Shown here: one piece after another, positions 4,632 to 54,533 of the stretch
Layout of the letters: every line of letters starts with the position of its first letter
Position numbering within the stretch: position 1 is the first letter of the stretch
Assembly: GCA_043800705.1 (NCBI GenBank)
Contig: JAZDMS010000010.1
Span: forward strand, 2,570-66,569
Length of the DNA: 64,000 nt
From: Candidatus Altiarchaeota archaeon
GTDB lineage: Archaea > Altiarchaeota > Altiarchaeia > IMC4 > SCGC-AAA252-I15
Reading direction: 5' to 3'
The notes under the pieces: generated by a model
Databases searched by the model: none
What the model was told of the DNA's origin: nothing
What the model saw: the letters and a program-made list of their open reading frames with translations, nothing else
Position numbers and translations under genes: made by a program

Positions 4632-4712
4632 GGCCTAATCGGGCCATTTTAACCCTCCTTCAAGGTTAGGGGGCTTATAATAGCTATATACCATAATATC
4701 TTCGGTATCATC

Positions 4713-5738: not shown

Positions 5739-5742
5739 GGAA

Positions 5743-6237
5743 ATGTCAGGCATAGAAAAAACGGCGAAGACTGTGTTCGCCGTCATTGTCGGCGCGGTTC
5801 TCTACTCAATCCTCAACTGGATACCCCTCTTGGGGGCCGCAGCGGCGGGAGCATATACCGGCTACGGCTCAGGCGGCGGGTTCAGGCGAGGGTTCAGGAA
5901 TGCGGCATATGCCGCAACCATCGGCGGCCTCCTAGTCATATGCTTGGCATATGTATACGCCCTGACGGACCTAACCGGTGCGAACAAAACGCTGATCATG
6001 TTCGTCGGATGGGTCCTCCTGGTCTGGCACATCGCCGGCGTACTTATCGCAGGATTAGCGGGGGGCCTCGGAGCCGTAGGCAACGACATCAACAAGCTGA
6101 TTCCGACCGGACTGAGGGAAGTGATCACCAAGCCCCGGAAGAAGTCCGCAGTCGACTATGCTATCTGCCCCGGATGCGGCCAGGGAAACGTCGTCTCAGC
6201 CAAGACGTGCATAGGCTGCGGAATCGGCCTCCCATGA
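5743..6237 (+). CDS. Membrane protein with a C-terminal zinc-ribbon
   Basis: Four predicted TM helices, then CPGCGQG...CIGCG. Confidence 0.5.
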   Translation: MSGIEKTAKTVFAVIVGAVLYSILNWIPLLGAAAAGAYTGYGSGGGFRRGFRNAAYAATIGGLLVICLAYVYALTDLTGANKTLIMFVGWVLLVWHIAGVLIAGLAGGLGAVGNDINKLIPTGLREVITKPRKKSAVDYAICPGCGQGNVVSAKTCIGCGIGLP

Positions 6238-6797
6238 AAAAGCTCCAAGAAATGGTGGAAAATAACCTGTGGCTGGCGTTGATCGCGGCCGCCTCGTTCA
6301 CGGCGGCGGTGCCTGTAGGCCTGCTGATTTACCCCCTGGTCAGCGACAGGCTCCCGTCTCTTCTACAGGACGCATTCGGCGGGATAATGGGCGGCCCCGA
6401 CTGGCTCGTGATATTCAATGTTTTCGCACGCAACACGACCGCGTCAATCGTCATGATGCTGCTTGGTGTGACGATCGTTCTGCCCCTTGCGGCGCTATTC
6501 GCGAACGGCCTGCTAGTGGGGCTCGTCTTCAGGTTCGCCTCCGACAGGGGATTGGACCCGGTAAAGATTGCCATTGGAATAATCCCTCACGGCATATTGG
6601 AGCTGCCTGCGATCTTCCTGTCTGCCGCGCTTGGGATGCGGGTAGGGCTGCAGCTTGCGACACAGCGGGGCCGGCGCCTGGCTGCGGGATGGGATGCCGC
6701 GAAGGAGGCCGCCGCAGTCTATTTATCCCTGGTTAGCCCGCTTCTTTTGATCGCCGCAGCGGTGGAGATACTCGTGTCAAAGAACCTCATAGGATAG
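6234..6797 (+). CDS. SpoIIM/DUF95-family membrane protein
   Basis: The internal ATG at 6234 is the likely start. The upstream part of the listed ORF is an Arg-rich shadow of the preceding gene. HGILELPAIFLSAALG motif. Confidence 0.55.
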   Translation: MKKLQEMVENNLWLALIAAASFTAAVPVGLLIYPLVSDRLPSLLQDAFGGIMGGPDWLVIFNVFARNTTASIVMMLLGVTIVLPLAALFANGLLVGLVFRFASDRGLDPVKIAIGIIPHGILELPAIFLSAALGMRVGLQLATQRGRRLAAGWDAAKEAAAVYLSLVSPLLLIAAAVEILVSKNLIG

Positions 6798-6824
6798 GAA
6801 ATTCAGATGCCGTAGATTGCCAGC

Positions 6825-8546: not shown

Positions 8547-8607
8547 CCCTCCCTCCTTTTCCTGCCTTGCCTATCAGCCTCTAATACCTCGGCTACGACT
8601 GAGCCCC

Positions 8608-9909
8608 TCAGGAACCGGATCCGTTGAGCTTAGTCAGGCACATCTCCTCCTTTTCCGGCGCGTACGACGCGAAGACGCTGTCATACGGGAACCCGATGAG
8701 CTGCCTCTCCATCAGGAACGACAGCAACGCAGTCGCGACGATCGAGAACAGTATCGTCGCATAGACCAGCTCCTTTATAAAAATGCCCTTCTCCATTCCC
8801 GCCTGGGCGGGAAGCGTGGCAAGGACCGCGGCGGCCAGGCCGATGGGCATGATAACCGCAGCCAGCGACGCGTCCCTCTTCGGGATGGACCTGTCAAAGG
8901 ACAGCCTGACTGTGAGGATCCTAACGGAGAAGACGAGGACGGTCGCGATCAGGCCCAAGGCGAAGATGCCGAGGTTATGCAGGAGAATGGACATCCCCAG
9001 ATAGACGAAGAAGAACGTCTTGAGCAGGAATCCGACCTCTCCGACGAACTCCTTCTCCGTCTGGTTCAGGCTTATCGGCCTCAGCGCGATCCTCTTCCCG
9101 CCGAAGATGGGGATCCTCAGGTCGTGGTAGCCGTTCGGGACGATGTTCTTTATGTTCCCCAACGTCACGCCCATCGCAAGGGAGGAGATGGCGCCGCTGA
9201 AACCGAGCGCCTCGGTCAGGCCGTAGGTGATGAACACGAACGCGGGCGTCAGGAAGATGCTGTTCTCCAAGTGGCGGATCCCGGAAAGCGCCGAAGACCA
9301 TGCGAAGGCGAAAAGGCCCCCTATGACGGCGGCAAGGAAGAAGGATGCGATTATCTGGCCCACCACGGCACCGGGCCTCAGGTCGTGGTAGGTCACCGAC
9401 TGGATGAGCGCCAGGGTGACTACGATGCATAACACGTCGCTGAACGTGGACTCCAGGACGAGCATCGTCTTCGTGTCGCCTTGGAGGCGGACCTTCTCGA
9501 CCATCGGGATCACGATGGCGGAGGACGTGCCGCCGAGGATGGCGCCGAGGATCATCCCCTCCCGGAGGGACAGACCCATCCCGACGGATGCGAGCATCAT
9601 GATCCCGACGATGAAAAGGAAATTGCATACCGTGAGCTTCACCCCACCGCCTAGCGACTTGCGGATGGTCGTGAAATTCAGCCCTATCCCGCCTTCGAAT
9701 AGTATGATGACGAGGGTGATGCTTATGAAGACGTCGCCCACGTCGCCGAAGAAATCCGGGCTGACAAGGCCCGTCACAGGGCCCATCAGCAGGCCGATAA
9801 GCACGAGCGGGAGCACGTCCGGGATCCTGGTCTTCTCGAAGAGGCTGGCGAACAGGTGCGCGATGAATATCAGGAAACCCACCGAAAACACGATAGCCGA
9901 CACATCCAA
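8608..9909 (-). CDS. Na+/H+ (cation:proton) antiporter, NhaP/CPA1 type
   Basis: 12-TM sodium/hydrogen exchanger pattern. Confidence 0.8.
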   Translation of the reverse strand: MDVSAIVFSVGFLIFIAHLFASLFEKTRIPDVLPLVLIGLLMGPVTGLVSPDFFGDVGDVFISITLVIILFEGGIGLNFTTIRKSLGGGVKLTVCNFLFIVGIMMLASVGMGLSLREGMILGAILGGTSSAIVIPMVEKVRLQGDTKTMLVLESTFSDVLCIVVTLALIQSVTYHDLRPGAVVGQIIASFFLAAVIGGLFAFAWSSALSGIRHLENSIFLTPAFVFITYGLTEALGFSGAISSLAMGVTLGNIKNIVPNGYHDLRIPIFGGKRIALRPISLNQTEKEFVGEVGFLLKTFFFVYLGMSILLHNLGIFALGLIATVLVFSVRILTVRLSFDRSIPKRDASLAAVIMPIGLAAAVLATLPAQAGMEKGIFIKELVYATILFSIVATALLSFLMERQLIGFPYDSVFASYAPEKEEMCLTKLNGSGS

Positions 9910-18480: not shown

Positions 18481-18589
18481 CAGGGCTCCCTAATCGGCCT
18501 TTCAAGTATTTTAAAGAACAGTCCATATATATAGAATCTCAACAAAACCTCATTAGAATCGCCATAAACGCAAAATAAACAATTCATAT

Positions 18590-18672
18590 GCGGGGGTACC
18601 CGAGCGGCCAAAGGGGCAGGACTTAAGATCCTGTGACGCAGGTCTTCGAGGGTTCAAATCCCTTCCCCCGCA
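18590..18672 (+). tRNA. tRNA-Leu (anticodon TAA), class II with a long variable arm
   Basis: Acceptor stem GCGGGGG/CCCCCGC, anticodon stem CAGGA/TCCTG, loop CTTAAGA, T-arm GGGTTCAAATCCC. No encoded CCA. Confidence 0.85.
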
Positions 18673-18725
18673 ATCCTCGTAGGAGTCGTTTCCAGTATTT
18701 AACGAAAAAAGTAATGAATTAGAAG

Positions 18726-19220
18726 ATGAAACTAGGATTAGTAGGAAAGATAGTACTGGCTGTGTTGATTCTTATTATAGGATATTATGTATTGGGTAAG
18801 ATTCTCTTTGCTATCTTTTCCAGTAGTGTCGAATGTCATGATAAAAGCAATGGGTGGTATTGTAATGGAAACATGCCCGTGCCAATCTTCATGTTTTTCA
18901 TACAAGGTGAGTATGAGAAGAAGTGTGTCGCTGAAGGAGGGATTACTAACTGGGGCCATGGATTACTTTCAGTCGTATGCGAACTTCCATTAGACGATGC
19001 AGGAAAGACATGTACTAGTGCGTCACATTGCAAAGGCCCATGCTATGTTGAAGAAGAATATCTGAAATCTAAGTTCCCAGAGATAAAGCCTCATGAGTAT
19101 TTTGGGCTTGATTGTAGGGATTGCAAGGCACAATGCTATAAGTATAATGTGACCTGCAATGGATTTCCACCCTACACCTTAGATGACAATGGGAAAATAG
19201 CAGGGAAAATGATATGCTAG
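18726..19220 (+). CDS. Small cysteine-rich secreted or membrane-anchored protein (12 Cys)
   Basis: N-terminal TM/signal anchor and 12 Cys in about 130 extracellular residues. AT-rich codon usage unlike the flanking genes. Confidence 0.45.
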   Translation: MKLGLVGKIVLAVLILIIGYYVLGKILFAIFSSSVECHDKSNGWYCNGNMPVPIFMFFIQGEYEKKCVAEGGITNWGHGLLSVVCELPLDDAGKTCTSASHCKGPCYVEEEYLKSKFPEIKPHEYFGLDCRDCKAQCYKYNVTCNGFPPYTLDDNGKIAGKMIC

Positions 19221-19334
19221 TATTTGTAATGCCAATACTTGATACATCCTTGACTCTTTTTATTACCAGACTTGTATAAGACTATTACACGGGTTGTGTA
19301 ATCCGTTAGAGAAACGAGGCCTGTGCGGTGGACG

Positions 19335-19372
19335 CTTCCCCCGCAAACAAATAAAGGGTTCAAATCCTTTCC
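19335..19372 (+). repeat. att-like remnants: cttcccccgca plus agggttcaaatcctttcc, copies of the tRNA-Leu 3' region
   Basis: An 11-nt exact match and a 17/18-nt match to tRNA-Leu positions covering the T-arm and acceptor 3' strand. Confidence 0.5.
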
Positions 19373-19431
19373 TATCTGTTGTTAGCACGATACTTTATAG
19401 GTCTATAATGCTATAGTATTATGGTGATACT

Positions 19432-19638
19432 ATGAACACAACTATCCAAGTCAATATAGAAACCAAGAATGTTCTGGAGAGGGTCAAGGAAACGTATCAT
19501 GTAAAATCTTATGATGATGCCATCCGTAAGTTAATCAACACAAAAACGCAGAGCCTATATGGTAGCTTGGCCACAAAGAAGAACATGCAGATGAAGGACA
19601 TACTAGCGGGTTTGAGAGATAAAAATGACCGGGATTAG
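19432..19638 (+). CDS. vapB: Putative VapB-type antitoxin
   Basis: A 68-aa ORF overlapping the downstream PIN gene by 14 nt. Confidence 0.5.
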   Translation: MNTTIQVNIETKNVLERVKETYHVKSYDDAIRKLINTKTQSLYGSLATKKNMQMKDILAGLRDKNDRD

Positions 19639-20008
19639 GCTATTGATAGATTCCAGCATTTGGCTGGCCTACTTTCTCGCTTTAGAGGGGAAAGTTGCTA
19701 CCCTAATTGACTCTGAAGAAAATACACTTTACACATCAGTCATTAGCCTGCATGAAGTGCAAAAAAAATTGGCGAAGATGGGCCACACCAGCCATCAGAT
19801 TGCTAAAGCCATCGCTTTCATGAAACAGAACAGTGTGCTCGTACAAATAGACGCTAAGATAGCGGAGGCATCAGTCGCCCACTGCAGAGAACATGGACTG
19901 CACACAGTCGATGCCCTCATATATGAAACAGCAGTAGAAAACAAATGTACTCTACTGACTGGGGACTACGACTTCAAAAACCTCCCCAACACAGAGATAT
20001 TCAGGTAA
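19625..20008 (+). CDS. vapC: PIN-domain toxin VapC
   Basis: PIN acidic residues (LLIDSS, TVDALIYETA, LLTGDYDF). Confidence 0.8.
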   Translation: MTGIRLLIDSSIWLAYFLALEGKVATLIDSEENTLYTSVISLHEVQKKLAKMGHTSHQIAKAIAFMKQNSVLVQIDAKIAEASVAHCREHGLHTVDALIYETAVENKCTLLTGDYDFKNLPNTEIFR

Positions 20009-20053
20009 AGCCTGGGCCGGAAGACCGTAGACGGAGGACTGGAGACTTTCCCG

Positions 20054-20068
20054 ATCCCTTCCCCCGCA
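20054..20068 (+). repeat. att-like direct repeat atcccttcccccgca, identical to the 3' terminal 15 nt of tRNA-Leu
   Basis: Exact 15-nt match to 18658-18672. Confidence 0.55.
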
Positions 20069-20210
20069 TAGGTAAATACGCAACTGTCAACCTGATCGTT
20101 TAAAGGGTATTACTCTAAGCTGATACCTTAGGTAGAACCCATTCACCACGCTGGTTTGGTTGTTGGTCTGGCTTTCCTACGCTATTTTTCCATAATTTTT
20201 TTTAGGCCTT

Positions 20211-20341
20211 TTTTTTATTGGCTTCGATTATCCTTTTTCTTCTCTTGTCTAATTTATTCATCCTGCGCGTTTTTGCCATAATCCTTTCAACTTTATTTTT
20301 CATTGGCTTCAATTACCCTATTTCCCCTCTTGTTTAATATA
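20211..20341. repeat. Two imperfect ~40-nt direct repeats (attggcttcRattaYcct...ctcttgtYtaat) spaced ~87 nt apart, iteron-like
   Basis: Read directly: about 75% identity between the copies. Located between convergent genes. Confidence 0.3.
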
Positions 20342-20366
20342 TGCGGTTTTACTTGTATTGTGGCTG

Positions 20367-20762
20367 TCACATTTCGTGGTCGGCACCTTTCCCCGATTGG
20401 TAATCCCTGTGGTTTTGCACCAGTTCCATGAAGTGTCGCTTGTCATATACGATGCTATCCTCCATTTGGCCGTAGCTAACGGATATTTTACCCTGCTTGT
20501 TCACTCGGGCGTCGAAATGTTTCCACTTGCCGTCGCAGACGTACAGTAGCTCGCTGCCCAGGTCTTTGGCGAAGTGTAGGGTGATGCCTGCCTCATGGCT
20601 CCACTGGACCAGTTTCTCGACGCTGCGGGCCTGTTTGGGGGGCTGTAGATTCTTCTTGCAGCGGGGGCAGATCTCCTTGTCGCCAGTGTATTGGGCGACC
20701 TTGTATCTGGGTGTGAACTTTTTGCTGCATTTGGGGCAGAGATGGAACTTGTGCGTTGTCAT
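20367..20762 (-). CDS. Zn-ribbon protein with a possible PD-(D/E)xK/DUF559-like nuclease fold
   Basis: CPKC...CPRC at the N-terminus; ELLYVCDGKWKHFDAR resembles the DUF559 (Vsr-like) core. Confidence 0.4.
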   Translation of the reverse strand: MTTHKFHLCPKCSKKFTPRYKVAQYTGDKEICPRCKKNLQPPKQARSVEKLVQWSHEAGITLHFAKDLGSELLYVCDGKWKHFDARVNKQGKISVSYGQMEDSIVYDKRHFMELVQNHRDYQSGKGADHEM

Positions 20763-21572
20763 GGCGTATTCACTCCTTAGCTTAGTCTATTATTACTTCG
20801 CCCTTGGGGCCAATAAAGCAGGCGCAGACTCGACTATAAGGCTGTGAGGTGTTGGTCTACACGCTTTTTTTCACTGCCTCCATTTTACACACACATGCCA
20901 GCGCTCCAATTGATTTCATCGTTGATACCCCGCTGCTCTGCAGCGGGGACGTATGTGCACGTATCCTCTACGTATAGCTAATAAATAGGATATTGGATCA
21001 TTTTGGTTAATTTTTTTGTCTTGTGGCGCGTTTAACTGCCTTCTTGTAATTGTGTTTGTTTTTTGCTGTGTTGCACAATTAGTTGGGGTTTTTCGTTTTT
21101 TCCCTCTTATGCTCTTTGCATCTTTTGGTATGCCCCTATTTTACATGCTGCTTCTTGCAGCGTGCCTGTTTCGCTTGTTGCCCTAATTTGCTCTCCGAAA
21201 ATCCGTTTTATTATGCTTGTCGACTGAATACTGCGGGCTTTTGCCCGCAGATGAAGTGTGCCTCGTAAATCATTGGGTGCGGGGGTTTGAATCCCCTCTG
21301 CGTTTGTCCACTAGGTGCAGAAGCGGATGGGCAGGGTGTCTTCCGTGAGGGGGTTGTTTGACCCCCTTGGGATTGTTCATGGCCGGATTAAGTCGTGCGA
21401 CTTTATATCCTTCGCGGTTTTTGCGTGTTTTAAGGCGTTTGTGCTATAAGTTTGGGTGGAAACCAAGAGCGCTACGGAGCCAAGGACGACTAAGAAGAAG
21501 ACGGCCGCCAATAAGCGGTTTAACAAGATGAGGCATAATACCGAGGGCAAGCGGGGCCGCAGGTAAGCGTTT

Positions 21573-21860
21573 TTGTCTCTTGTTATGCGTTATCCTAAGC
21601 AGCTTGGGCGGATGGGGAGGTCGAGGCGGGGCAGCATATTTCTCACGAACCCTAGGGGTGAGTCCTTCAACGTCCACCAGACCGTGGCCTATATCTGGGA
21701 TAATGCGTCCGGTTCGAAGACGATCCAGGAGATATCCGACTCGCTGATGGAGGCCTTGCAGGTGAGGGAGGAGGACCGTGAGGGTGAGCGGGAGAATGTC
21801 CTCCTGGCGTTTAGGGATTTGGAGCGCAAGTCCCTGATAGAGTACAGGGTCGGGAAGTAG
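21573..21860 (+). CDS. PqqD-like peptide chaperone (RiPP recognition element)
   Basis: SFNVHQTVAYIWDNASGSKTIQEISDSLMEAL...VLLAFRDLERKSLIE matches the PqqD pattern. Confidence 0.6.
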   Translation: MSLVMRYPKQLGRMGRSRRGSIFLTNPRGESFNVHQTVAYIWDNASGSKTIQEISDSLMEALQVREEDREGERENVLLAFRDLERKSLIEYRVGK

Positions 21861-21893
21861 GCCGGTCCGGTCTGTCGAGGCCGCTGATATCGT

Positions 21894-23681
21894 TCACGGG
21901 GGTTTGCGCATTTTGTCTCTCATCTGGTATGCGTATTCTAGGTTTTCATTGGTGCTTGTGTCGTCGGGGTTGATCCTTTTGGCTGCCTCGTATTCTCTGA
22001 TGGCTTTTTCGGGCTCTCCACGTGCGAGGTAGGCGGTTCCCAGGTTGCTTCGGGCTTCGTAGTAGTATGGGTTGGATACTATCGCCAGGCCGTATTCTTC
22101 GGCAGCCTCGGCGGTCCTGTTTGTCCTGATGTATGTGTTTCCCAGGTTTAGGTGGGCGTAGGGCCTCAGGGAGTCGATTCGGACCGCTTCCTTGAGCGCT
22201 TTTTCTGCTTTGGCGTATTCTCCGGCGCTGTTGTATGCTTCGCCGAGGTTGTTGTGGGCTTCGTAGTGGTTCGGGCTGTGTTCGACCGCCTTCAGATAAT
22301 ACTCGAGCGCCTTTTGGCTCTGTCCCAGGCTGGCGTATTCCCTGCCGAGGTTGTTGTATGGGTTGTACATCCCCGTGCCTTCTATGTCCGCCCTGTAGCC
22401 CCCGTTGTTGACAAGTAGCATGAGAACCGCCAATGCGATTGCTGGTTTTATCAGGGTTTTGCCGCTTCGCCATATGTCCCAGAGGCGCCATATGGCGTGG
22501 GCGCAAAAGAGGATCACGGCAAGGATGAGGGTTATCCTGAATCTGCCCTTGACGAAGAACAATATGAACGAGGCTGCGTAGGCGATCATGAATATGCCGG
22601 TCGGCCGGGCTTTTCTGTTGCCGATGCTATAGGCCGCGCCGAGGATGCCAAGGGGCGCTATCAGCGCCATGGTCGGTATCATGTATCCGAGTATTCCTTG
22701 GTCTTTCTCGAACCAGTAGTCCTCCATGTCCGGTATCTCGTAGGCGTTGACGTATAGCATCGCCTTACGCAGCATCAGGGCGGCCCACCCGGCGGGGTCT
22801 GAGGTCATGTATGTTATCGCCTTGTCCCGAAGCAGTGCGTCCGCTTCGAGGATGCTTCGGCCGCGTGGGGTATATTCGTCCTGTTCGATGTAGTATGCGT
22901 TCCCTGAAGAGTGTATCAGTTCGTTCAGGGGCGTGAATGTCCCCGTCGCCTTCGGGTTGTTGCCTATGTAGAGGTTGACGCCGAAGTTGCCCGTCACGGG
23001 GGCTATGCCCCCTGCCATCATGTTCCTGGCGGTGATCGGGGCGACTGCCACCAATGCGCCGACAAGCAGCCAGGCTGCGGCGTGCCTTGATTTTTTTCGT
23101 GTCGGGTAGAGCCAGTTCATTGCGAGAATCAGCGGCAGGATCACGAGTATGTTCGATTTGCCCCAAGCGCTGATGCCCAATACTACCCCCGCCAGCGCCC
23201 AGGTTTGGGGCTTCCCTTCATCGTAGGCTTTGGTAAGGAGGTATATGAGGGCGGCATTGACGAATATCAGGACCGGCTCGGATAGGATGGTCCCCGTATA
23301 GAATACTAGCGGCCCGTATACCGCCGCCATGAGCCCGGCCGTGAGGCCGGTCCTCGCATCGTAGACTCGTTCCCCGAGGAGTTGGATGATTGTGCACGCC
23401 AGCGCCTCCATTATCGCCTGGACGATAAATACCGCCGCGATGTCGTGGCCGAATACAACGTGGATTGCGGCAAGGAAGTATGTGTACAGCGGCCCAAGCT
23501 GGTAGACGCCTCCCTGAATCGGCCCCTGTTCGATGATGGCATGGGCTGCCAGGTCGTATGTCTTGGAGTCGAACATCAGCGTCGTATGGAAAGGGCTTGA
23601 GAGCGCCTGGGAGACATAGACGAGCCTGATGGAAAGCGCAAGGAAGAAGACGAAGGCTCTGGCGTACGAAGTCGAGTTCAT
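21894..23681 (-). CDS. PMT/ArnT-like (GT39/PMT_2) polytopic glycosyltransferase with C-terminal TPR repeats
   Basis: About 11 TM helices, then about 5 TPR repeats. Confidence 0.6.
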   Translation of the reverse strand: MNSTSYARAFVFFLALSIRLVYVSQALSSPFHTTLMFDSKTYDLAAHAIIEQGPIQGGVYQLGPLYTYFLAAIHVVFGHDIAAVFIVQAIMEALACTIIQLLGERVYDARTGLTAGLMAAVYGPLVFYTGTILSEPVLIFVNAALIYLLTKAYDEGKPQTWALAGVVLGISAWGKSNILVILPLILAMNWLYPTRKKSRHAAAWLLVGALVAVAPITARNMMAGGIAPVTGNFGVNLYIGNNPKATGTFTPLNELIHSSGNAYYIEQDEYTPRGRSILEADALLRDKAITYMTSDPAGWAALMLRKAMLYVNAYEIPDMEDYWFEKDQGILGYMIPTMALIAPLGILGAAYSIGNRKARPTGIFMIAYAASFILFFVKGRFRITLILAVILFCAHAIWRLWDIWRSGKTLIKPAIALAVLMLLVNNGGYRADIEGTGMYNPYNNLGREYASLGQSQKALEYYLKAVEHSPNHYEAHNNLGEAYNSAGEYAKAEKALKEAVRIDSLRPYAHLNLGNTYIRTNRTAEAAEEYGLAIVSNPYYYEARSNLGTAYLARGEPEKAIREYEAAKRINPDDTSTNENLEYAYQMRDKMRKPP

Positions 23682-31342: not shown

Positions 31343-32047
31343 TCAGGCCATATCGTGGAAGACCCTCTCGTTCGGGTACAGGTTGATGCCGGTGTCCTCT
31401 ATGCGGTAGACAGTCTCGGTCGTCTTGTGTTTCGTACCCCTCATCTTCAGGACCTCGAGGGTCCTGACCCGCTCCTGCCCGACCTTCTTGTAGTAGAGCT
31501 TGATCCAGCCGTCGACGATGTATGTGAGGCCGAAGGGTGTGTAGTCCTGAGACGATTCAGAGACTATCAGCGTCGTCACGTTCCAGCTCTTCAGCTTTTC
31601 GAAAAGGCGCTGGACAGCGGTCCGCTGTTTTGATTCGTTCTCGTAGTTGAGGACGAAGGCGGAGATGCTGTCGAGGACTATGCGCTTCGCCTGCATCTGG
31701 ATTATCTCCTGCTCGATGCCGAGGGATCCCTTGTCGAGGAAGTCCTTCATCTTCTGCGACGTGCATTCGAAGAACAGGAAGTTGCCGGCGTTCTCGTACT
31801 CCTCGATGTTGTATCCGAACCTGGCCATGTTATGGGTGAAGCTCTTCTTGGTCTCCTCGACGCTGATGTACACCCCCCTCTCGCCGGCCTTGACGCCGGC
31901 CAGGAGATACTGCAGCGCGAACGTCGATTTGCCGCTTCCGGGATCCCCCTCCAGGAGGTTGACGCTGTCCTCCTTGAATCCTCCCTCCATGAGCTCGTCG
32001 AGTTTACCGACGCCCGTAGACTTCCTTCCCGTCTCTGTCCTGTCCAT
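31343..32047 (-). CDS. KaiC-like RecA-superfamily ATPase (single domain; ArlH/FlaH-like)
   Basis: Walker A GDPGSGKST and a KaiC-type core; about 230 aa. Confidence 0.75.
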   Translation of the reverse strand: MDRTETGRKSTGVGKLDELMEGGFKEDSVNLLEGDPGSGKSTFALQYLLAGVKAGERGVYISVEETKKSFTHNMARFGYNIEEYENAGNFLFFECTSQKMKDFLDKGSLGIEQEIIQMQAKRIVLDSISAFVLNYENESKQRTAVQRLFEKLKSWNVTTLIVSESSQDYTPFGLTYIVDGWIKLYYKKVGQERVRTLEVLKMRGTKHKTTETVYRIEDTGINLYPNERVFHDMA

Positions 32048-32049
32048 GT

Positions 32050-32742
32050 TTAATCAGTCCCGAAGACCCTCTCGTTCGGGTACAGGTTGATGCCTTTGTC
32101 CTCTATCCTGTAGACGACCTCGGTCGCATCGTGCTTCGTACCCCTCATCTTCAGCACCTCGATCGTGCGTATCCTCTCGCGGCCGCTCTTTTTGTAGTAG
32201 AGGCGTATCCATCCGTCGACGAGGTATGATGCCCAGTTGTTGTTGTGCTGGGTGTGTGCCGCCTCGGCGATGACGAGCGTGGTCAGCCCCCAGCTTCTGA
32301 GCTTCTCGAAGAGCCGGTGGACCGCAGCCCTCTGTTTGGCTTCGGTCTCATAGAGCGTTACGAAGGCGGATATGCTGTCCAGGACGAGCCTTTTCGCATG
32401 TATCTCCGTTATCTTGTCCTCTATCCCTATCGTTCCCTTGTCGAGGGATTCCTTCAGCTTCTGGGGGTTGCATTCGTAGAAGAACAGGCTGCCTTCCTTC
32501 TCGTATTTTGCGAGGTCGAAGCCGTAGTAGCCCATGTTCTCGAAGAAGTTCTCCCTGCTCTCCTCGACGCTGATGTATATCCCGTTCTCGCCTGCGTTTA
32601 TGCCTGCGACGACATAGGACACAGAGAGCGTGGATTTGCCGCTGCCTGCGTCGCCTTCCACCAGCGTTATGCTCTTCTCCTTCAGGCCCCCCTGTATGAG
32701 GCTGTCGAGGTTTGGGATGCCAGTGGGTCGGCGTGCGTTCAT
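32050..32742 (-). CDS. KaiC-like RecA-superfamily ATPase, a paralogue of the preceding gene
   Basis: Walker A GDAGSGKST. Collinear similarity to 31343-32047 (…KMRGTKH…INLYPNERVF in both). Confidence 0.75.
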   Translation of the reverse strand: MNARRPTGIPNLDSLIQGGLKEKSITLVEGDAGSGKSTLSVSYVVAGINAGENGIYISVEESRENFFENMGYYGFDLAKYEKEGSLFFYECNPQKLKESLDKGTIGIEDKITEIHAKRLVLDSISAFVTLYETEAKQRAAVHRLFEKLRSWGLTTLVIAEAAHTQHNNNWASYLVDGWIRLYYKKSGRERIRTIEVLKMRGTKHDATEVVYRIEDKGINLYPNERVFGTD

Positions 32743-32774: not shown

Positions 32775-33512
32775 CTAATACCAGCCGTACTTCCTTTTTT
32801 GCCTACGCTGCTGGGTGCCCCAGGATTTCACTGTAAGGCCTCGCAGGATCACGTCCGGATCGCTTCTGTCCTTGGCCCTTCCGGCGTATTCCTCCGTATT
32901 CTTCCCAACTGCCGCCTTGGACTGCGCCTCCGTGAGCCCCAGCATCATCCCCCCGTCCGCCAAGTCGTGCGGGCTTCTCACGTCTAGGTCCGTGCGGGCG
33001 CCGCAGCCCAAAACGACATTTACGCCGTACTTTCTTGCGACCCTGATGTTCTGGCCGATGCGCCCAAGCAGCCTGGCACGCCTCATCCCGTTCGCGTGTA
33101 GGACGTTGCCTGCGTTGACTAGGTATCCGACTCTCCTCTCCGCCATGAAGGCAGCCATCACGTGGTCGATGCCCCCGCTCCACTGGTCTACGAGGTCGCG
33201 CTCCTCGTTCATTTCGGGGTTCACGATGAGGTCGACCTCCCAGGACTCGGAAGCCGCCCTTGCCGCGTCCTCGTTGCGGCCGTCCACGACTACGAGGTCC
33301 GCACCCAGGTCGAGGGCCTTATGTGCTGCCTTCTCAGGGGCTTCCGAGATTATGGCGCCGACGAGGACATTTCTCCCCCTCTTCCTCGCTGATTCCGCGA
33401 ATCCCCTGAAGTCTGCGCCGAATTCGCACGCTGCGAGGATGCCGTCCCATCCGAGCCGGATGTGGGCCTCAAGGGTCGCAGGGTCCGTGAGTAGGTCATA
33501 GCATTTCATCAA
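32775..33512 (-). CDS. rnp3: RNase P protein component 3 (Rpp30/p30, TIM-barrel)
   Basis: Family-level pattern (VDLIVNPE...); about 240 aa. Confidence 0.5.
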   Translation of the reverse strand: MMKCYDLLTDPATLEAHIRLGWDGILAACEFGADFRGFAESARKRGRNVLVGAIISEAPEKAAHKALDLGADLVVVDGRNEDAARAASESWEVDLIVNPEMNEERDLVDQWSGGIDHVMAAFMAERRVGYLVNAGNVLHANGMRRARLLGRIGQNIRVARKYGVNVVLGCGARTDLDVRSPHDLADGGMMLGLTEAQSKAAVGKNTEEYAGRAKDRSDPDVILRGLTVKSWGTQQRRQKRKYGWY

Positions 33513-33999
33513 GCAGCTCCGCCGCGGACCTCAGCGCGTTCTCCCTGCTGGCGGGGTAGGCCGCCAGCTTGAATGTCACATGGATTGGGTCCTTATGTTC
33601 CAGGACCATCTTGCCGCCTTTGGCTTCGGCCTTGCTCAGGCGCAGGTACATGTTGCAGTCGTCGTCGACATGGTCTTCGAGCCTCTCCCTCAGGAGCCTC
33701 TTGTCGTATTCGTCCAGTCCGCGCAGGACCTTGGATGCGAACTCCCTCACCTCCTTCTGTCTTGTGAGCCTGGCCGTAAGCTCGACGATCTCGCTTTTGA
33801 ACACACCCCCGTCGGCCTCAGGCTCGAGGACCGTTTCATCGACCTTCGTGTCCGCAGGCAAGAGGCCCTTCAGGATCTCGCGAAGGGCTTCCGAGGCCTC
33901 CTTCGGCGAGAATGCGCGGACAGTGATGTGGTGGGCTTTCACGGTAAAATAGAAGACGGATTGGATTATTAAGGGATGTATTTCTTCAAGAGATTCCAA
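33496..33999 (-). CDS. Hypothetical protein, possibly RNA-processing associated given its neighbourhood
   Basis: A 167-aa ORF overlapping the rnp3 start; not recognised. Confidence 0.35.
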   Translation of the reverse strand: MESLEEIHPLIIQSVFYFTVKAHHITVRAFSPKEASEALREILKGLLPADTKVDETVLEPEADGGVFKSEIVELTARLTRQKEVREFASKVLRGLDEYDKRLLRERLEDHVDDDCNMYLRLSKAEAKGGKMVLEHKDPIHVTFKLAAYPASRENALRSAAELLDEML

Positions 34000-34009
34000 C
34001 TATCTTACC

Positions 34010-35593
34010 GTGGAAGCCGAGGTGCATGGAAAACAGTTCAGAAAGGCTGCTTTAGTCAGCCAGTTTCGGCAGGGTAAGCCGGCGGAGGAGGCATTGGCCT
34101 ACATGGTGAAGAAATTCCACCAGGATATGCCCCCCGAGGAAGTCAGACGGCTATATTCGCACATGAACCCGTCCCCCCTGAAGTTTTCGAGGCTACCCCC
34201 AGAGCAGGTATCAGAGGCATACCGAAGACAAAGGCAGAGGCAGAAGGAGAGGGCAGATAGGATCGGGCAGAAGAAGCTTGGCAGATCGCTTACGCCCGCC
34301 ACTCGTAAAAAAATCGCCGAGGCGGGTATGGGCAGGGTGATGTCGGAGGAATCGAAAAAGAAGATAAGCGCCGCCAATACCGGGAAAATTGTCAGCCCAG
34401 AGACTAGGGAGAAGCTTCGGAAGGCGAAACTTGGCACAACCCAAAGCGAAGAGACCAAGGAGAAGAAACGCAAGGCCAGCCTTGGCAGAGTCGTCACCCC
34501 CCAAACCCGGGGGAGATTGAGCAAGGCATTAATGGGCCATAGCGTAAGTCCTGAAGCTAGGGAGAAGATTGCCGATGCCGCTAGAATGAGGACCGGCAGA
34601 AAAAATTCATTCTTCGGGAGGCATCATACGCCGGAGACAAAAAAAAGGCTGAGTGAACGGATGTCTGGCGAAATGCACCCGATGTTTGGCAAACACCTAT
34701 CTGAAGAGGCAAGGCGAAAAATAAGCGAGTCTAAAAAAGGACCTAAGAATCCGATGTTTGGCGTGCATAAACCTCATAGCCCTGAAACAAAAAAAAGCAT
34801 AAGCGAGTCTCTGTTAAGCTTCAATAAGGTGTTCTCTGCCAAGGGCGGTGGCGAGACAATTGACGTGCCTGCCATCGACGACGAGGACATGTCACTGATA
34901 TCTGATGCATTGTCGAGGCACAGGGATTTGGGCATCCTCTACTGTGTGGCGAAAATTGACAGAAATAAGGCTGACCGCCTTGTCTCCTCGCACAAGTTGG
35001 ACGTGCGTCGCATGGTGGAGGAGAGACTTACACCCTACAAACTCGCACCGGATAGCGGGATAATGCTCGCCTGGGTTTACCTCATGGCTAAAGAACTAGG
35101 GGTGGATATTTCCCCGTCCGAGGAACATGCCATCATCATAGGGGGAGAGGCAAAGCGGCTTATGGCGAACGTTAAGGGGTCTGACGTAGTCGACTACATC
35201 GATGTAATCGACTTTGCAGAGCTCTCCTCAACGATGCCACAGATCGGCATCAGAGCGGATTATAAAGAAGTCGAGGAACCTATGAGGACACACCTCATCT
35301 GTTTTTTGGCTGATGCCAGGCATAGGGCAAAAAAGTTATGGAAGGATTTGCGAACTGCCAGGACAGAAAATGAGTTGGATGAATCGAACCGTAACCTGGG
35401 CAGCATGACGGCTTCGATACTCCTCAACATGGGGCGCATGGGCTTCGGGGCGGATGTCACAGGCGATGATTGGGATATAATGGCCTCCCGGCTGGAGTCC
35501 TTCAGGGAATCAAATAACGCCTCAGGAATCGCATGGATGCATTATGCCCTGAGGGAAATCTCCAAATACTATCCTCTTAAGGCCAGACCTTGA
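34010..35593 (+). CDS. NUMOD3 tandem-repeat DNA-binding protein (8-9 repeats) with a C-terminal domain of unknown function and no nuclease domain
   Basis: Repeats of [ST]xE[AT][RK]xK[IL]SxAxxG with a ~22-aa period between residues 90 and 260. GTG start. Confidence 0.65.
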   Translation: MEAEVHGKQFRKAALVSQFRQGKPAEEALAYMVKKFHQDMPPEEVRRLYSHMNPSPLKFSRLPPEQVSEAYRRQRQRQKERADRIGQKKLGRSLTPATRKKIAEAGMGRVMSEESKKKISAANTGKIVSPETREKLRKAKLGTTQSEETKEKKRKASLGRVVTPQTRGRLSKALMGHSVSPEAREKIADAARMRTGRKNSFFGRHHTPETKKRLSERMSGEMHPMFGKHLSEEARRKISESKKGPKNPMFGVHKPHSPETKKSISESLLSFNKVFSAKGGGETIDVPAIDDEDMSLISDALSRHRDLGILYCVAKIDRNKADRLVSSHKLDVRRMVEERLTPYKLAPDSGIMLAWVYLMAKELGVDISPSEEHAIIIGGEAKRLMANVKGSDVVDYIDVIDFAELSSTMPQIGIRADYKEVEEPMRTHLICFLADARHRAKKLWKDLRTARTENELDESNRNLGSMTASILLNMGRMGFGADVTGDDWDIMASRLESFRESNNASGIAWMHYALREISKYYPLKARP

Positions 35594-35697
35594 GTGGCCC
35601 TATCTGCTTGACGGTTAATGCTCTCTTTTCCCGGATTCCCCCCTCCCGGCCTCCATCTCCTACAGCCTCAACCTGGGGGGATGACGACTCAGGGTTA

Positions 35698-36369
35698 TTA
35701 ACCGGTCTTTGGTATCAGGTCGCAGAAGAAGAACCTCCCGTCCTTTGACGTGATCTCTCCCCTTTCGAATCGGACCGGTTTCCCGAACCCTGGCCCGTCG
35801 TATGCGAACGTGTGGAATTCCCCGTTCTCGCCGCATGGGTCCGCGTCGGAGGGAAGGCTTTTCAGGAATTCCCCGTCGTATTCCCTCCCCGCCAGGTCCT
35901 CGTCCAGCTCGCAGCCGTCGACGCACGTCACTATCGCCTTGTACCCCCGTGCGATGAAATCTCTCGCAAGGGCTGCGGTATCCTCCTTCCACAGCGGGAA
36001 GACAGCTTCCATCCCGGCTCTGGCGAGCCTGTCGGTCCTGTACGCCCTGAGGTCCTCGAGGAAGATGTCGCCGAACGCGACTGCGGAGATCCCCTCTCCC
36101 TTTTTCCCCTCCAGGATGGCGCCCATCGCGCCCTCGTAGTCCGTGTTGGTGTGGTCCTTGCCGAGTCCGACCTCGGTCAGCGGCAGGCCCAAGGATTCCG
36201 CCTGCATCCTCAGTAGCTCGATCCTGACCCCGTGCATGAAGACGCGGCCGAAGTCGGAATTGTATGTGCTCAGAAGCGCGGCGACATCGTATTTTCCCTC
36301 GCGTCTCAGGCGTTCCAGCGCTAGTAGGCTGTCTTTTCCGCCGCTCCAGGAAAGTATGGCATTCGGCAT
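35698..36369 (-). CDS. dph6: Diphthine-ammonia ligase (Dph6-like PP-loop ATPase)
   Basis: PP-loop SWSGGKDS at the N-terminus. Confidence 0.7.
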   Translation of the reverse strand: MPNAILSWSGGKDSLLALERLRREGKYDVAALLSTYNSDFGRVFMHGVRIELLRMQAESLGLPLTEVGLGKDHTNTDYEGAMGAILEGKKGEGISAVAFGDIFLEDLRAYRTDRLARAGMEAVFPLWKEDTAALARDFIARGYKAIVTCVDGCELDEDLAGREYDGEFLKSLPSDADPCGENGEFHTFAYDGPGFGKPVRFERGEITSKDGRFFFCDLIPKTG

Positions 36370-36371
36370 GT

Positions 36372-47242: not shown

Positions 47243-47420
47243 AATGGGCCCGCCCGGATTCTTGAAAAAGCCTTCGGCTTTTTACATCCAGGCGGGTGCG
47301 TGAGACGAGACGCCAGTGGGAAGATAAGAAATGGGCCCGCCCGGATTTTTCCAAAAAAGCGCCTCGCGCTTTTTACATCCGTGCGGGTTCGCGAGACGAA
47401 TTCGCTTCGGAAAGATACTA
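47243..47420 (-). repeat. Two tandem ~89-nt units, each carrying a copy of the 3'-terminal 17 nt of tRNA-Val plus an A-tract/hairpin/T-tract terminator-like element
   Basis: atgggcccgcccggatt occurs at 47243, 47330 and 47421 (the real tRNA end). The hairpins are gccttcggc and gcgcctcgcgc, each flanked by A5-6 and T5-6. Confidence 0.6.
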
Positions 47421-47421
47421 A

Positions 47422-47496
47422 TGGGCCCGCCCGGATTTGAACCGGGGACCTCCGCCATGTCAAGGCGACGTCATAGCCGGACTAGACCACGAGCCC
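47422..47496 (-). tRNA. tRNA-Val (anticodon GAC)
   Basis: Cloverleaf on the minus strand: acceptor GGGCTCG/CGGGCCC, anticodon stem TCGCC/GGCGG, loop TTGACAT, T-arm CCCGG-TTCAAAT-CCGGG. Confidence 0.8.
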
Positions 47497-51205: not shown

Positions 51206-51526
51206 ATGGGCCGCTCGAGGGATAAGGGGGAGCAGAGGGATATTGCGCTCGAACGCGTCATGTTGCTTCTTGCCCAGGCCGAGTCTTTGGCGTCTGGGGG
51301 CGATCCGGGTTCAGCGTCTTCGAGGGTGAGGCTGGCGAACAGGATATGTCTCCGTTTCAATCTGCGCCTTCCGCCTGTTTTGAGGCTGCGGTACTGCCGC
51401 GGGTGCCTGTCGTATTTCACGTTATCGAATTCCCGCCGCAGGCTGGATCCGAGGAATCGGAGGCTTGTGGTCAGATGCCTCGCCTGTGGTAGATGCGCAT
51501 ACCGCCCGTATTTCAAGAAGGCTTAG
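51206..51526 (+). CDS. rnp4: RNase P protein component 4 (Rpp21/Rpr2)
   Basis: Zn ribbon CRGC...CLAC and about 105 aa. Confidence 0.65.
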   Translation: MGRSRDKGEQRDIALERVMLLLAQAESLASGGDPGSASSRVRLANRICLRFNLRLPPVLRLRYCRGCLSYFTLSNSRRRLDPRNRRLVVRCLACGRCAYRPYFKKA

Positions 51527-54500
51527 TCTTCTTCTTCACGAAACTTGTGATGTTGAGCATCAGCTTCTCGGCTGGTGACGGGGTCTTTGGCTGATTCGGC
51601 TCTGCGGCCTGCGGGGGTTTTGTTGTCTGTGCGGGAGGCTCCTGAGGCGGCGTTTTCACTGGCTCTTGCGGTTTCTTTTCATCCTTAGGTATGAGGGTTA
51701 TCCTGTGGCGTATGCCCTTCTTGCCTGAGCCGGCCGACGGCTGCGGTATTTGAGGCTTCGGCTGCTGGGGTATTGTCTGCGGGGCTTTTGGCGGTATTGT
51801 CTGGGGTTTGGGTTGTTGGGGCGGCGTCTGTTGCATCGGCTGTGTTGTCTGCTGTTTGGGTTGTTGGGGTATTGTCTGCGGGGCTTTTGGCGGTATTGTC
51901 TGGGGTTTGGGTTGTTGGGGCGGCGTCTGTTGCATCGGCTGTGTTGTCTGCGGCTTAGGCTGCATCGGTCTCATGGGGCCCGACTGCGTTGTGGCCGGCC
52001 TGGCCACCGGTTGTGTAAGTGGTCTCTGCATCTGCGGCATCGGGAATTTACCTGGAGGCTGCGGCTTGTATCCAGGCTGCGGCATCGGCGGCCTCTGAGG
52101 CTGGCCTGGCATCCTCGGCGGCAGCTGCCCCGGCGGAATCGGCCTGTACTGTCCCTGCGGCATCTGCTTGTATTGCATTGATACTGTCGACGGCTGTTTC
52201 TTGAGTATGATCGCTGCTGCGAGGATGAGGAGCGCGATGGTGACTACTACCGTAGAATTCATCCATCCCGAGGATGAGGTCGTCGGGGTCTGGGCTTTGT
52301 TCGAGTTGTCGATGATCTTCCTCGCCTTGGCATATCCGGCATAGTCTCCGCTTTCGTTGAACTTCCTTGACGCGTTCTCCGCGTATTCGGCGGCCTTCTT
52401 GAAATACGCCCCCCTCCAGTACAATTCCGCGTCGTTGTAGAGCATATTGGCCTCATACATATTGTTGGCTTTCTGGTAGAGCTTCAGCGATTTTTCGAAT
52501 CCCTCCGCGCTCGTGTTCTCGAACCATTTCATGGCCTCCTTCGCGTTCTCTGTCGCGTTTTCGAAGCTGCTCCTGTTGAGGGCTGCGGCCGCGGCGGCAT
52601 ATGATTCATCGCCTTTTATGGTGTCTACGGTCCTGTCAATCTTCGCCATATCCTCGGTCCTTCCCGCAAGTTCGAACGATTTTTTCGCGAATCCGAGGAG
52701 CATCTTGGCGGTATCGAGCCTGCCTTCCTTCAGCGCGCTCATCCCGTCCTCGTAGTACGTCTGCGCATTGTCCTGGTTTTTGGTGATTACTGTGAGATTC
52801 TGGCATTTAATGATGCCTTCGGTGTCGTTCAGGCTCCTGAAGAACGTCTTTGCGGCTTCGATGTATACCGACGCGTTGGAGTGCAGTCCGCTGTCGAAGT
52901 AGTATTTTCCTTCGAGGTAGTATTTTTCGGCCTCGATCCTGCGGAAGAGTATGTCGCTCCTGTCCATCCCCCCCGTGTCGTTTACCTGCCTGTAAGTTTC
53001 GGCCGCCCTCTGCAGCTGCTGCCCTGCGTCTTCGAAGTCGCCTTGCTCGTAGAGTCTCTGCGCGTCCTGGAGGATCCTGTCCGAGTCGATGCTCTCCAGG
53101 AGGTCGTCGCATTTGTCTATGCCCCTGATGTACTTGACCTTCGCGTATATCTCGCGGGCCTGGTTGATGAGGGGTATGGCTTCCGCGAAGTTGCCGACTC
53201 CCTTTTGTTCGAGGGCTTTGAGGTAGAGTGCGTCGCCTACCCCTATGCTCCTGCCCCTTCTGTCCCCGAATAGGTAGACTTTTCCGTTATCTGAGCCGAT
53301 GGCTATCTCCGGGGACCCGTCGCCTGTGAGGTCCGCGACCGCCGGCGATGACCTGACCGCGGACCCGGTATCGTGGCTGAACCTCCGGACGCCGGGGTAG
53401 TCGACGATGTAGAAGCTGCCTTCGTTGCTGCCGAATATGACCTCGATCGTGCCGTCGCCGTCGAGGTCGGCTAGCGCAGGGGAGGATTCGATCGGCTTGC
53501 TGAGCGTATACGTCCTGTTGTCCGTCCCGTCGGAGTTGACGAAATGGAGGTTTTTATCGCCGGCTCCGACTGCCAGCCCGTATCCTCCTTCGGGGAACAC
53601 GTCCCCGACCGCCGTGGATGATCTGATCGGACTGTCGATCGTGTGATTCCACAGGAGTCCGAGGCCGCTCAGGCTGATCGTGTCGGTGCCCCACACATCG
53701 TCTACCCGGACCCTCCTCGTCTCGGCAGTGCCCATCCACTGTATCTCCAGCCTGTATATCACTCCGTCCTCGGAGCCGACGATTATCCTCCCGGATTCGT
53801 CTATGGTCGGGGTCGCGCTAATGTCCCCCTTCGTAAGGTACTGCCAGACCTTGTAGGGGGGGTATTTCAGGACATAGATGATGTTGTCCGCTGAACCGAT
53901 GATGATCTCGTCTTTCCCGTCGATGTCGATGTCGTATATGGCTGGCGAGGAGTCGATCTTGTCCAGCGTCTTGTACGACCAGTCCTCGACTCCCTTGGAG
54001 TTGAGGGCGTATATCCTTCCATCCTCGGATCCGAACACTATCTTGTTGTCGGACTGCGGGTCGGTCTCGATGAGTGCGGGCGAAGACCTGACAGGCCCCC
54101 CCGTGGAGAAGTTCCATATGTGCCTTCCGCGGCTGTCCAAGAGGTAGAGCCTGCCGTCGTCGGAGCCGATGAGTATTTCGGTCTTTTGGTCTTTGAAGAC
54201 GTCAGCCGCGGTCGGCGACGACCTGACCGGCCCGCCGGTCTTGAACCTCCATTCAACCTCGCCCTGATAATCCAGGGCATAGACGTATCCGTCGGCGGAT
54301 CCGAACACGATCTCCTTGATGCCGTCCATGTCTATGTCTGATATCACCGGCGAGGACTCGACCTGGCCCCCCGTCTGGTAGTCCCAGAGGGCTCCGAAGT
54401 CGCTCATGTTGCACCAGGTTTCCGCGTCGCTCTCCCCGGTCCGCAGGAAATTCCCCCTGAACGTGGGCCAGTCTGCGGCCGCGGCGTTCTGTGCCAGGAT

Positions 54501-54533
54501 TAGTAGGATCGCGAGGTATGGGGCGCTTCTCAT
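51513..54533 (-). CDS. Large surface protein (signal peptide, PQQ-like beta-propeller repeats, a helical/TPR-like region, one TM helix and a Pro/Gln-rich repetitive tail)
   Basis: N-terminal signal MRSAPYLAILLILAQNAAAA. Repeats of the BamB/PQQ type (DGxxYALD...W). TM VVVTIALLILAAAIIL. The tail consists of QPKPQT-like repeats. Confidence 0.7.
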   Translation of the reverse strand: MRSAPYLAILLILAQNAAAADWPTFRGNFLRTGESDAETWCNMSDFGALWDYQTGGQVESSPVISDIDMDGIKEIVFGSADGYVYALDYQGEVEWRFKTGGPVRSSPTAADVFKDQKTEILIGSDDGRLYLLDSRGRHIWNFSTGGPVRSSPALIETDPQSDNKIVFGSEDGRIYALNSKGVEDWSYKTLDKIDSSPAIYDIDIDGKDEIIIGSADNIIYVLKYPPYKVWQYLTKGDISATPTIDESGRIIVGSEDGVIYRLEIQWMGTAETRRVRVDDVWGTDTISLSGLGLLWNHTIDSPIRSSTAVGDVFPEGGYGLAVGAGDKNLHFVNSDGTDNRTYTLSKPIESSPALADLDGDGTIEVIFGSNEGSFYIVDYPGVRRFSHDTGSAVRSSPAVADLTGDGSPEIAIGSDNGKVYLFGDRRGRSIGVGDALYLKALEQKGVGNFAEAIPLINQAREIYAKVKYIRGIDKCDDLLESIDSDRILQDAQRLYEQGDFEDAGQQLQRAAETYRQVNDTGGMDRSDILFRRIEAEKYYLEGKYYFDSGLHSNASVYIEAAKTFFRSLNDTEGIIKCQNLTVITKNQDNAQTYYEDGMSALKEGRLDTAKMLLGFAKKSFELAGRTEDMAKIDRTVDTIKGDESYAAAAAALNRSSFENATENAKEAMKWFENTSAEGFEKSLKLYQKANNMYEANMLYNDAELYWRGAYFKKAAEYAENASRKFNESGDYAGYAKARKIIDNSNKAQTPTTSSSGWMNSTVVVTIALLILAAAIILKKQPSTVSMQYKQMPQGQYRPIPPGQLPPRMPGQPQRPPMPQPGYKPQPPGKFPMPQMQRPLTQPVARPATTQSGPMRPMQPKPQTTQPMQQTPPQQPKPQTIPPKAPQTIPQQPKQQTTQPMQQTPPQQPKPQTIPPKAPQTIPQQPKPQIPQPSAGSGKKGIRHRITLIPKDEKKPQEPVKTPPQEPPAQTTKPPQAAEPNQPKTPSPAEKLMLNITSFVKKKTKPS
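51767..51964 (-). repeat. Near-perfect 99-bp (33-aa) in-frame tandem duplication inside the PQ-rich tail
   Basis: ggggtattgtctgcggggcttttggcggtattgtctggggtttgggttgttggggcggcgtctgttgcatcggctgtgttgtctgc occurs twice consecutively. It encodes QTTQPMQQTPPQQPKPQTIPPKAPQTIPQQPKx twice. Confidence 0.7.

Follow-up and report, generated by a model that had tools for sequence, protein, structure and literature searches.

We identified in a 64,000-nucleotide stretch of a Candidatus Altiarchaeota contig (JAZDMS010000010.1; hereafter the window) a gene whose product joins a tandem array of NUMOD3 DNA-binding units to an acidic, all-helical repeat domain and has no nuclease domain detectable by any sequence or fold test that we ran. 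We read the protein, with a probability of roughly 0.55, as derived from a free-standing homing endonuclease but catalytically inactive, recently acquired and acting as a minor-groove DNA-binding adaptor. The gene (34010..35593, plus strand) starts with GTG and encodes 527 amino acids (aa) in an uninterrupted open reading frame (ORF). The product is 100% identical to MFH0861833.1 (P0001 in our comparisons), a protein from a 211-kb contig of a Candidatus Altiarchaeota metagenome-assembled genome (MAG) that NCBI already names a NUMOD3 domain-containing DNA-binding protein. An earlier note, written from the DNA letters and their ORF translations, had assigned to this frame a nuclease-free protein with eight or nine tandem NUMOD3 repeats. 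The frame was found exactly where it had placed it, and the array has nine units.

NUMOD3 is described as the minor-groove-binding alpha-helix module of the homing endonucleases I-TevI, I-HmuI and I-BmoI (PMC3664794). The repeats passed the HMMER test that the earlier note had proposed, with the Pfam NUMOD3 model (PF07460) reaching 103 bits against a gathering score of 20.4 (E=7.3e-30) over six stretches of its 37 positions. Direct reading resolved nine tandem units at aa 93-275 (34286..34834, plus strand), which start at aa 93, 111, 129, 146, 163, 180, 207, 231 and 257 and share the core pattern S/T-x-E-T/A-R/K-x-K-I/L-S-x-A-x-x-G. An independent unit hidden Markov model (HMM), trained on 687 units from other proteins with the query left out, recovered all nine in register at -0.2 to 23.8 bits (seven at 5 bits or more, two weak); a single one of 200 shuffled proteins yielded any unit at 5 bits or more. 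The uniform period of about 22 aa ascribed to the array did not hold. Units 1-5 recur every 17-18 aa and units 6-8 every 24-27 aa, with a longer NPMFGKH-type linker; the reported period is thus the average of two spacing classes, a short one with five units and a longer one with four. Unit 7 aligns with the region of I-TevI that holds the minor-groove helix (HSDITKSKISEKMKG; 1i3j, E=0.023), and the array as a whole is strongly basic (isoelectric point [pI] 10.8, net charge +25). The 15-aa cores share a mean pairwise identity of 0.36 (range 0.13-0.67). Comparison of the nucleotide sequences indicates an old, diverged set of units: identity between non-adjacent copies reaches 76-78% at best, and Tandem Repeats Finder detected no repeat with the unit period.

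The array may extend further toward the amino terminus. BLASTP aligned aa 40-94 to NUMOD3 units of the homologue P0057, and the segment at aa 41-92 (34130..34285, plus strand) may, tentatively, hold two NUMOD3-like units in degenerate form (PPEEVRRLYSHMN and PPEQVSEAYRRQR), with a very basic helix behind them. The independent unit HMM found no unit in this segment which, like units 5 and 9, is weak or degenerate. If aa 41-92 are two further units, as they may be on this alignment, some 40 aa are left without assignment. These form a short basic segment with two predicted helices (aa 1-40; 34010..34129, plus strand), to which no family could be assigned; its Pfam matches were all sub-threshold and included HTH_48 at E=0.09. 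The 90-aa non-nuclease N-terminus of the earlier note is correct as regards the nuclease, but its truly unassigned part may be no longer than about 40 aa.

The homologue search returned 505 matches, all of them through the array alone, with a query coverage of at most 46% among the 120 proteins listed (the query and its 119 nearest homologues). Applied to these 119, the unit HMM detected mostly 7-9 NUMOD3 units, with maxima of 16 in P0021 and 14 in P0076, P0037 and P0004 (about 14). Pfam, for its part, counted 7-9 NUMOD3 stretches in P0005, P0010, P0012, P0007 and P0087. The array described here is thus of ordinary size. Long arrays are also found in clear GIY-YIG enzymes, P0017 and P0076 among them. 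The premise that NUMOD3 normally occurs in 1-3 copies holds among the model enzymes (for I-BmoI, three repeats are predicted; PMC3664794) but fails for the nearest homologues, and with it falls the description of the array as expanded. Judged from these comparisons, the unusual feature of the protein is its architecture, an array without a nuclease attached to an alpha-repeat domain, and not the number of its units.

All but approximately seven of the 119 nearest homologues carry a nuclease, as established by a local GIY-YIG HMM, motif inspection and Pfam. Their layouts place either a GIY-YIG or HNH domain at the N-terminus or the array first and an HNH, Vsr/DUF559, TnsA-like or Endo I-like domain at the C-terminus (P0005, P0010, P0069, P0051 and P0012 are array-first examples with HNH or Vsr). 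This homology of the array to nuclease-bearing proteins bears out the proposal that the protein derives from homing-endonuclease DNA-binding modules. In layout the protein resembles the array-first metagenomic and viral proteins (such as P0005, P0010, P0012, P0069, P0051 and P0087), which have the same order of parts, with 7-12 units ahead of a globular domain at the C-terminus, and in which short units with a 17-aa period also occur. Their C-terminal domain is, however, one of the four nucleases named above, whereas here it is an alpha-helical repeat domain. The model enzymes of the I-TevI type share the NUMOD3 motif and presumably the extended, minor-groove mode of binding. Yet they combine 1-3 units with a zinc finger or helix-turn-helix (HTH) and a nuclease domain; the protein studied here has nine or more units and lacks the zinc finger, the NUMOD1 HTH and the nuclease. 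Most known NUMOD3 proteins without a nuclease are from eukaryotes. The plant protein ClNUM1 is one (PMC11201747), and P0004, from the dinoflagellate Prorocentrum cordatum, is likewise without a recognisable nuclease, but both have unrelated flanks and no alpha-repeat domain. Searches of 5.8 billion clusters and of 1.8 billion representatives turned up no orthologue.

The search for a nuclease was negative throughout. The full protein matched no nuclease family in Pfam, NCBIfam, PHROGs or PADLOC, and neither flank did so when scanned alone in Pfam. Matches to homing-endonuclease models (TIGR01453, phrog_314 and PDLC03701) were confined to the NUMOD3 region; TIGR01453 scored 40.4 against a cut-off of 56.05 and aligned only over model positions 94-158, its DNA-binding part. 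A GIY-YIG catalytic domain was matched neither by PF01541 nor by the local GIY-YIG HMM, which was trained on the N-terminal 95 aa of 30 matches positive in Pfam and detected 67 of the 120 proteins. Further, hhalign against the GIY-YIG profile gave a probability of 0.1% for the N-terminal and for the C-terminal flank. There was no match to a Pfam HNH family, the HH..Y...C..CH motif of P0005 and P0010 is absent, and an HNH-type match (phrog_21964, E=0.15) fell over aa 72-148, in the basic and NUMOD3 region. For a PD-(D/E)xK domain (Vsr/DUF559, MTES_1575 or TnsA-like) there was no Pfam match in the C-terminal domain, which is predicted to consist of helices throughout. Among viral contigs, the N-terminal 92 aa had no relatives and the full protein was matched through its array only. 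The claim that the protein is nuclease-free was therefore upheld for both flanks, by the hhalign result for the N-terminus and by the predicted all-alpha fold for the C-terminus.

The C-terminal domain spans aa 276-527 (252 aa rather than the 280 or so estimated earlier; 34835..35590, plus strand) and is acidic (pI 5.5). An AlphaFold2 model of the domain, computed with a five-sequence alignment, has 11 helices and no strand, with a mean predicted local distance difference test score (pLDDT) of 78.8 and a predicted template modelling score (pTM) of 0.78. The full-length model, computed without an alignment, was too poor for use (pLDDT 42). With 11 helices and no strand, the alpha/beta PD-(D/E)xK, GIY-YIG or HNH fold is predicted to be absent from the modellable part of the protein. 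Foldseek returned nothing below E=0.3 from PDB and BFVD, the top matches being designed helical repeats, 14-3-3, TPR/ARM proteins and alpha/alpha toroids. The domain belongs to no Pfam or PADLOC family, and a word-index search was empty. An exhaustive phmmer search of the 1.8 billion representatives retrieved only four proteins (P0121-P0124; E=1.6e-6 to 9e-4), and a profile search from an alignment of the domain retrieved P0124 only.

The four proteins define a family to which the domain can be assigned. They are 240-284 aa long (typically ~245) and built of a two-helix repeat of ~38 aa with the shared signature VT-x-x-D-x-x-x-M ... A-x-M-H-Y-x-x-R-E-L-G. The query matches several of these repeats and aligns to P0121-P0124 along the whole length of the domain. 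A family HMM built from the tandem paralogues described below, without the query, scored 49.9 bits over aa 348-517 (envelope 280-524). Thus, the protein is a NUMOD3 array fused to one copy of an unannotated alpha-repeat family. The ends of the family proteins are not conserved in the fusion. The family head, K-x-L-R/K-E-x-P-L-L-N-P-P, is absent from the query and the NUMOD3 array stands in its place, and the tail is a degenerate YPLKARP against P-P-L-K-K-F in the family. A profile of 20 family sequences had a sole match among PDB sequences, to a designed helical repeat (E=1.4e-4), and P0122 had no relatives among viral contigs. Elsewhere the family is found as stand-alone, tandem genes with LREQPLLNPP heads and PPLKKF tails. 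Two of the four proteins lie on contigs assembled in Logan. These contigs (L009, positions 1-9332 of SRR31558115_49789; L010, positions 1-7963 of SRR13394437_215494) carry 8-10 tandem paralogues of ~245 aa each, with overlapping stop and start codons (many by 4 nt), a 'MTVKIKKLREQPLLNPP' head, a body of 38-aa helical repeats and a 'PPLKKF' tail in every one, and no Pfam family in any; L009 also encodes an AAA_14/DUF4143 ATPase and an HTH transposase. The 64-kb window has neither an alpha-repeat paralogue nor a second NUMOD3 gene. Rare, unannotated and multi-copy, the family may deserve a study of its own. Within the coding sequence of the domain we also noted a near-perfect palindrome (AGTCGACTACATCGATGTAATCGACT; 26 nt, 94% complementary, 35188-35213) that encodes VVDYIDVIDF and may be due to chance.

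The position of the alpha-repeat domain, where array-first relatives carry HNH, Vsr or TnsA-like nucleases, also raises the possibility that the gene still belongs to an endonuclease system. A new type of nuclease would then reside in the domain or in the N-terminal segment, or the domain would recruit a separately encoded nuclease in trans, and the array would still serve cleavage and gene mobility; the intergenic insertion described below, which resembles those of free-standing homing endonuclease genes, would fit as well. We give this explanation little credence. The predicted fold is all-alpha and solenoid-like, with no recognised metal-binding His/Cys or acidic catalytic motif and only two Cys in 252 aa. 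Nor is any of the adjacent genes, which encode a Dph6-like protein, methionyl-tRNA synthetase (MetRS), a PF01877 RNA-binding protein and RNase P p30, a nuclease gene, and members of the alpha-repeat family stand alone in multiple copies with no nucleases nearby.

We propose instead that the protein is a DNA-tethered adaptor, roadblock or repressor rather than a cutter. Nine (possibly eleven) NUMOD3 minor-groove helices would lie along extended DNA in the sequence-tolerant mode of I-TevI, with a footprint of several helical turns that we put at roughly 40-60 bp. The acidic alpha-repeat domain would sit where the relatives carry an HNH or PD-(D/E)xK nuclease and would most likely bind a protein partner. 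The most economical origin would be an array-first homing endonuclease whose C-terminal nuclease gave way to an alpha-repeat gene, with recent arrival of the gene in one Altiarchaeota lineage at an intergenic site between conserved genes. There is a precedent for such a nuclease-independent role, since the DNA-binding domain of I-TevI also functions as a transcriptional autorepressor without cleavage.

A different mode of DNA recognition was suggested by the earlier note, which likened the array to the logic of transcription activator-like effectors (TALEs). Developed fully, the idea is that the variable positions of each unit recognise a few base pairs, one unit to one subsite, so that the protein would recognise a long or periodic target and serve as a host regulator. 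The units are indeed tandem and regular, and core positions 6, 10, 12, 13 and 15, among others, vary between them against a conserved background at positions 1-5, 7-8, 11 and 14. The first NUMOD3 of I-BmoI has, in addition, been proposed to contact a specific G (PMC3664794). But the only thing that the array shares with TALEs is the idea of tandem repeats laid along DNA, and we found no homology between them. TALE repeats are 33-35 aa long and near-identical and read the major groove with a hypervariable residue pair; the units of the array are 17-27 aa long, 36% identical on average and of the minor-groove type, and their variation is spread out. Moreover, minor-groove binding of the I-TevI type is described as sequence-tolerant, in the title of a reference cited in PMC2988022. 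The cognate periodic DNA motif that the analogy calls for was found neither within the gene nor near it, and none of the window's tandem repeats, for example those at 47.1-47.4 kb and 51.8 kb, is evidently linked to the gene. There are also no orthologues in which co-variation could be seen. We therefore regard a programmable repeat reader as a doubtful explanation, to be given even less weight than a surviving endonuclease.

The genomic context is consistent with a recent acquisition. We compared the locus with those of three Altiarchaeota MAGs (L001, L002 and L003) whose MetRS are 60-75% identical to that of the window. A segment of 2,429 bp (33943..36371) that holds the NUMOD3 gene and the Dph6-like gene is absent between the MetRS and PF01877 genes of all three. 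In these relatives the MetRS stop is separated from the GTG start of the PF01877 gene by just 2-5 nt (L001 and L002) or ~120 nt (L003), and the PF01877 gene is followed by genes for RNase P p30, one KaiC, GNAT and SMC; synteny is conserved on both sides of the insertion. Read from the MetRS side, the segment contains the Dph6-like (Diphthami_syn_2) gene (35698..36369, minus strand), with its ATG 2 nt past the MetRS stop, a convergent spacer of 104 nt, the NUMOD3 gene on the opposite strand and a divergent spacer of 67 nt that separates the NUMOD3 and PF01877 genes (33943..34009). We found no relative of the NUMOD3 protein by tblastn of the three loci. The NUMOD3 gene also differs in composition from its surroundings, with a GC content of 0.518 and a GC content at third codon positions (GC3) of 0.61, against 0.77-0.85 in the neighbours and a window median of 0.757 (standard deviation 0.073). 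Free-standing homing endonuclease genes are typically intergenic and lie between conserved genes (PMC2988022). The NUMOD3 gene is intergenic, between conserved genes, sporadic in its presence (it is lacking in L001-L003) and foreign in composition, and thus fits this pattern. By these sequence comparisons it looks like a single-copy gene recently acquired as an accessory by one Altiarchaeota lineage, and not like a conserved host factor. The search for homologues in relatives that the earlier note had called for thus came back empty both at the syntenic loci and, for orthologues, in the databases searched; the suggestion that the protein is domesticated finds no support in this distribution or in the atypical GC3.

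The same insertion bears on the expression of its neighbours. Having cut the PF01877 gene off from the MetRS transcript, it must have supplied a new promoter. Alignment to the three relatives places the true start of the PF01877 gene (minus strand) at GTG 33942 (VKAHHITV...), whereas the mechanically called ORF (33496-33999) starts at TTG 33999. A near-palindromic, AT-rich element (GGATTATTAAGG, 33963-33974) lies in the divergent spacer with its centre ~27 nt from this start and, on our reading of the sequence, may be an archaeal TATA box for both divergent genes. A scan for sigma-70 promoter and terminator consensus sequences gave nothing above shuffles, the consensus being uninformative for an archaeon. 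Rfam and tRNA scans were negative near the NUMOD3 locus; with no RNA family nearby, there is no intron context.

A trivial explanation for an insertion of atypical composition is that the 2.4-kb segment was mis-joined into the Altiarchaeota contig during assembly or binning. The GC and GC3 of the NUMOD3 gene depart from those of its neighbours, and the sequence is a singleton known from one contig only. However, the genes on either side are intact and the segment fits exactly between them. The ATG of the Dph6-like gene follows closely on the MetRS stop, and the PF01877 gene keeps its GTG start. The Dph6-like part has host-like GC3, and conserved synteny continues to both sides. An artefact of this kind is very improbable.

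More serious is the possibility that the gene is a functionless remnant, in which recombination with some unrelated gene cost a free-standing homing endonuclease gene its nuclease and left it to drift towards loss, its intact ORF being transient. The protein is a singleton without an orthologue, the gene is absent from the three relatives and atypical in its codon composition, and units 5 and 9 and aa 41-92 show degeneration. Set against this, the frame runs uninterrupted for 527 aa, the fold of the C-terminal domain is confidently predicted and the family repeat signature is kept to the end of the protein, and most NUMOD3 cores retain S/T-x-E-T-K/R-x-K-I-S. On balance we think it unlikely that the gene is merely a relic, and we prefer the reading of an inactive homing endonuclease derivative with a DNA-binding function.

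Several observations nevertheless weigh against the interpretation we favor. GC3 is equally low in about six further ORFs of the window. We found in the segment 33943..36371 no target-site duplication and no terminal direct or inverted repeats, and the Dph6-like gene, which is also absent from the syntenic site of the relatives, has a host-like GC3 of 0.79. With no element boundaries and a host-like gene in the segment, a genome rearrangement is possible instead of an invasion of the homing type. Homologues of the Dph6-like protein in metagenome loci were at most 57% identical and none had NUMOD3, MetRS or PF01877 neighbours, and hence gave no clue to the origin of the insertion. DNA binding, the length of the footprint, the role in binding a partner and the origin through an exchange of domains are all properties that we infer from the sequence. 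As a singleton without orthologues, the protein could also be non-functional. Lastly, homology methods could overlook a novel catalytic function, which aa 1-40 or the alpha-repeat domain may hold.

The rest of the neighbourhood is made up of Altiarchaeota housekeeping genes, namely those for SMC, GNAT, two KaiC-like ATPases, RNase P p30, the PF01877 RNA-binding protein, the Dph6-like protein, MetRS and thioredoxins. The two KaiC-like ATPase genes are adjacent (31343-32742, minus strand; 234 and 230 aa) and have one counterpart in L002 and L003, an apparent lineage-specific tandem duplication beside the insertion. Other features of the window include a low-GC islet (18589-21900; GC 0.44-0.49 against 0.56 for the window) that starts directly after a tRNA-Leu(taa) gene (18589-18673). 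The islet carries a gene for a PIN-domain, VapC-like protein (19625-20008), a zinc-ribbon ORF and ORFs without a family, and may be a small integrated accessory element. A 91-bp tandem repeat of 2.2 copies (47243-47438) abuts a tRNA-Val(gac) gene (47422-47496), and a perfect 99-bp duplication (51766-51953) lies inside a long ORF (51516-54533).

The protein is a new domain combination, found in one genome, within the known NUMOD3 DNA-binding proteins of homing-endonuclease descent. It is a domain swap and not a new kind of system. Speculatively, and with low probability, the joining of the two parts may reflect a genuine functional relationship, in which the alpha-repeat family, with its diversified tandem paralogues elsewhere, would be an effector or a recognition module associated with DNA or chromatin. 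One copy would have been harnessed to a long minor-groove array of homing-endonuclease origin to give a novel type of protein that targets DNA independently of a nuclease, for example as a roadblock or silencer in the conflict between mobile element and host. If the protein is functional, long NUMOD3 arrays would be reusable in archaea as stand-alone DNA-tethering modules, and the fusion would provide the first functional handle on an unannotated family of helical-repeat genes. The main value of the finding is, however, a correction: metagenomic homing endonucleases commonly carry large NUMOD3 arrays, with 7-16 units. The locus also illustrates how an accessory gene has entered a conserved Altiarchaeota operon.

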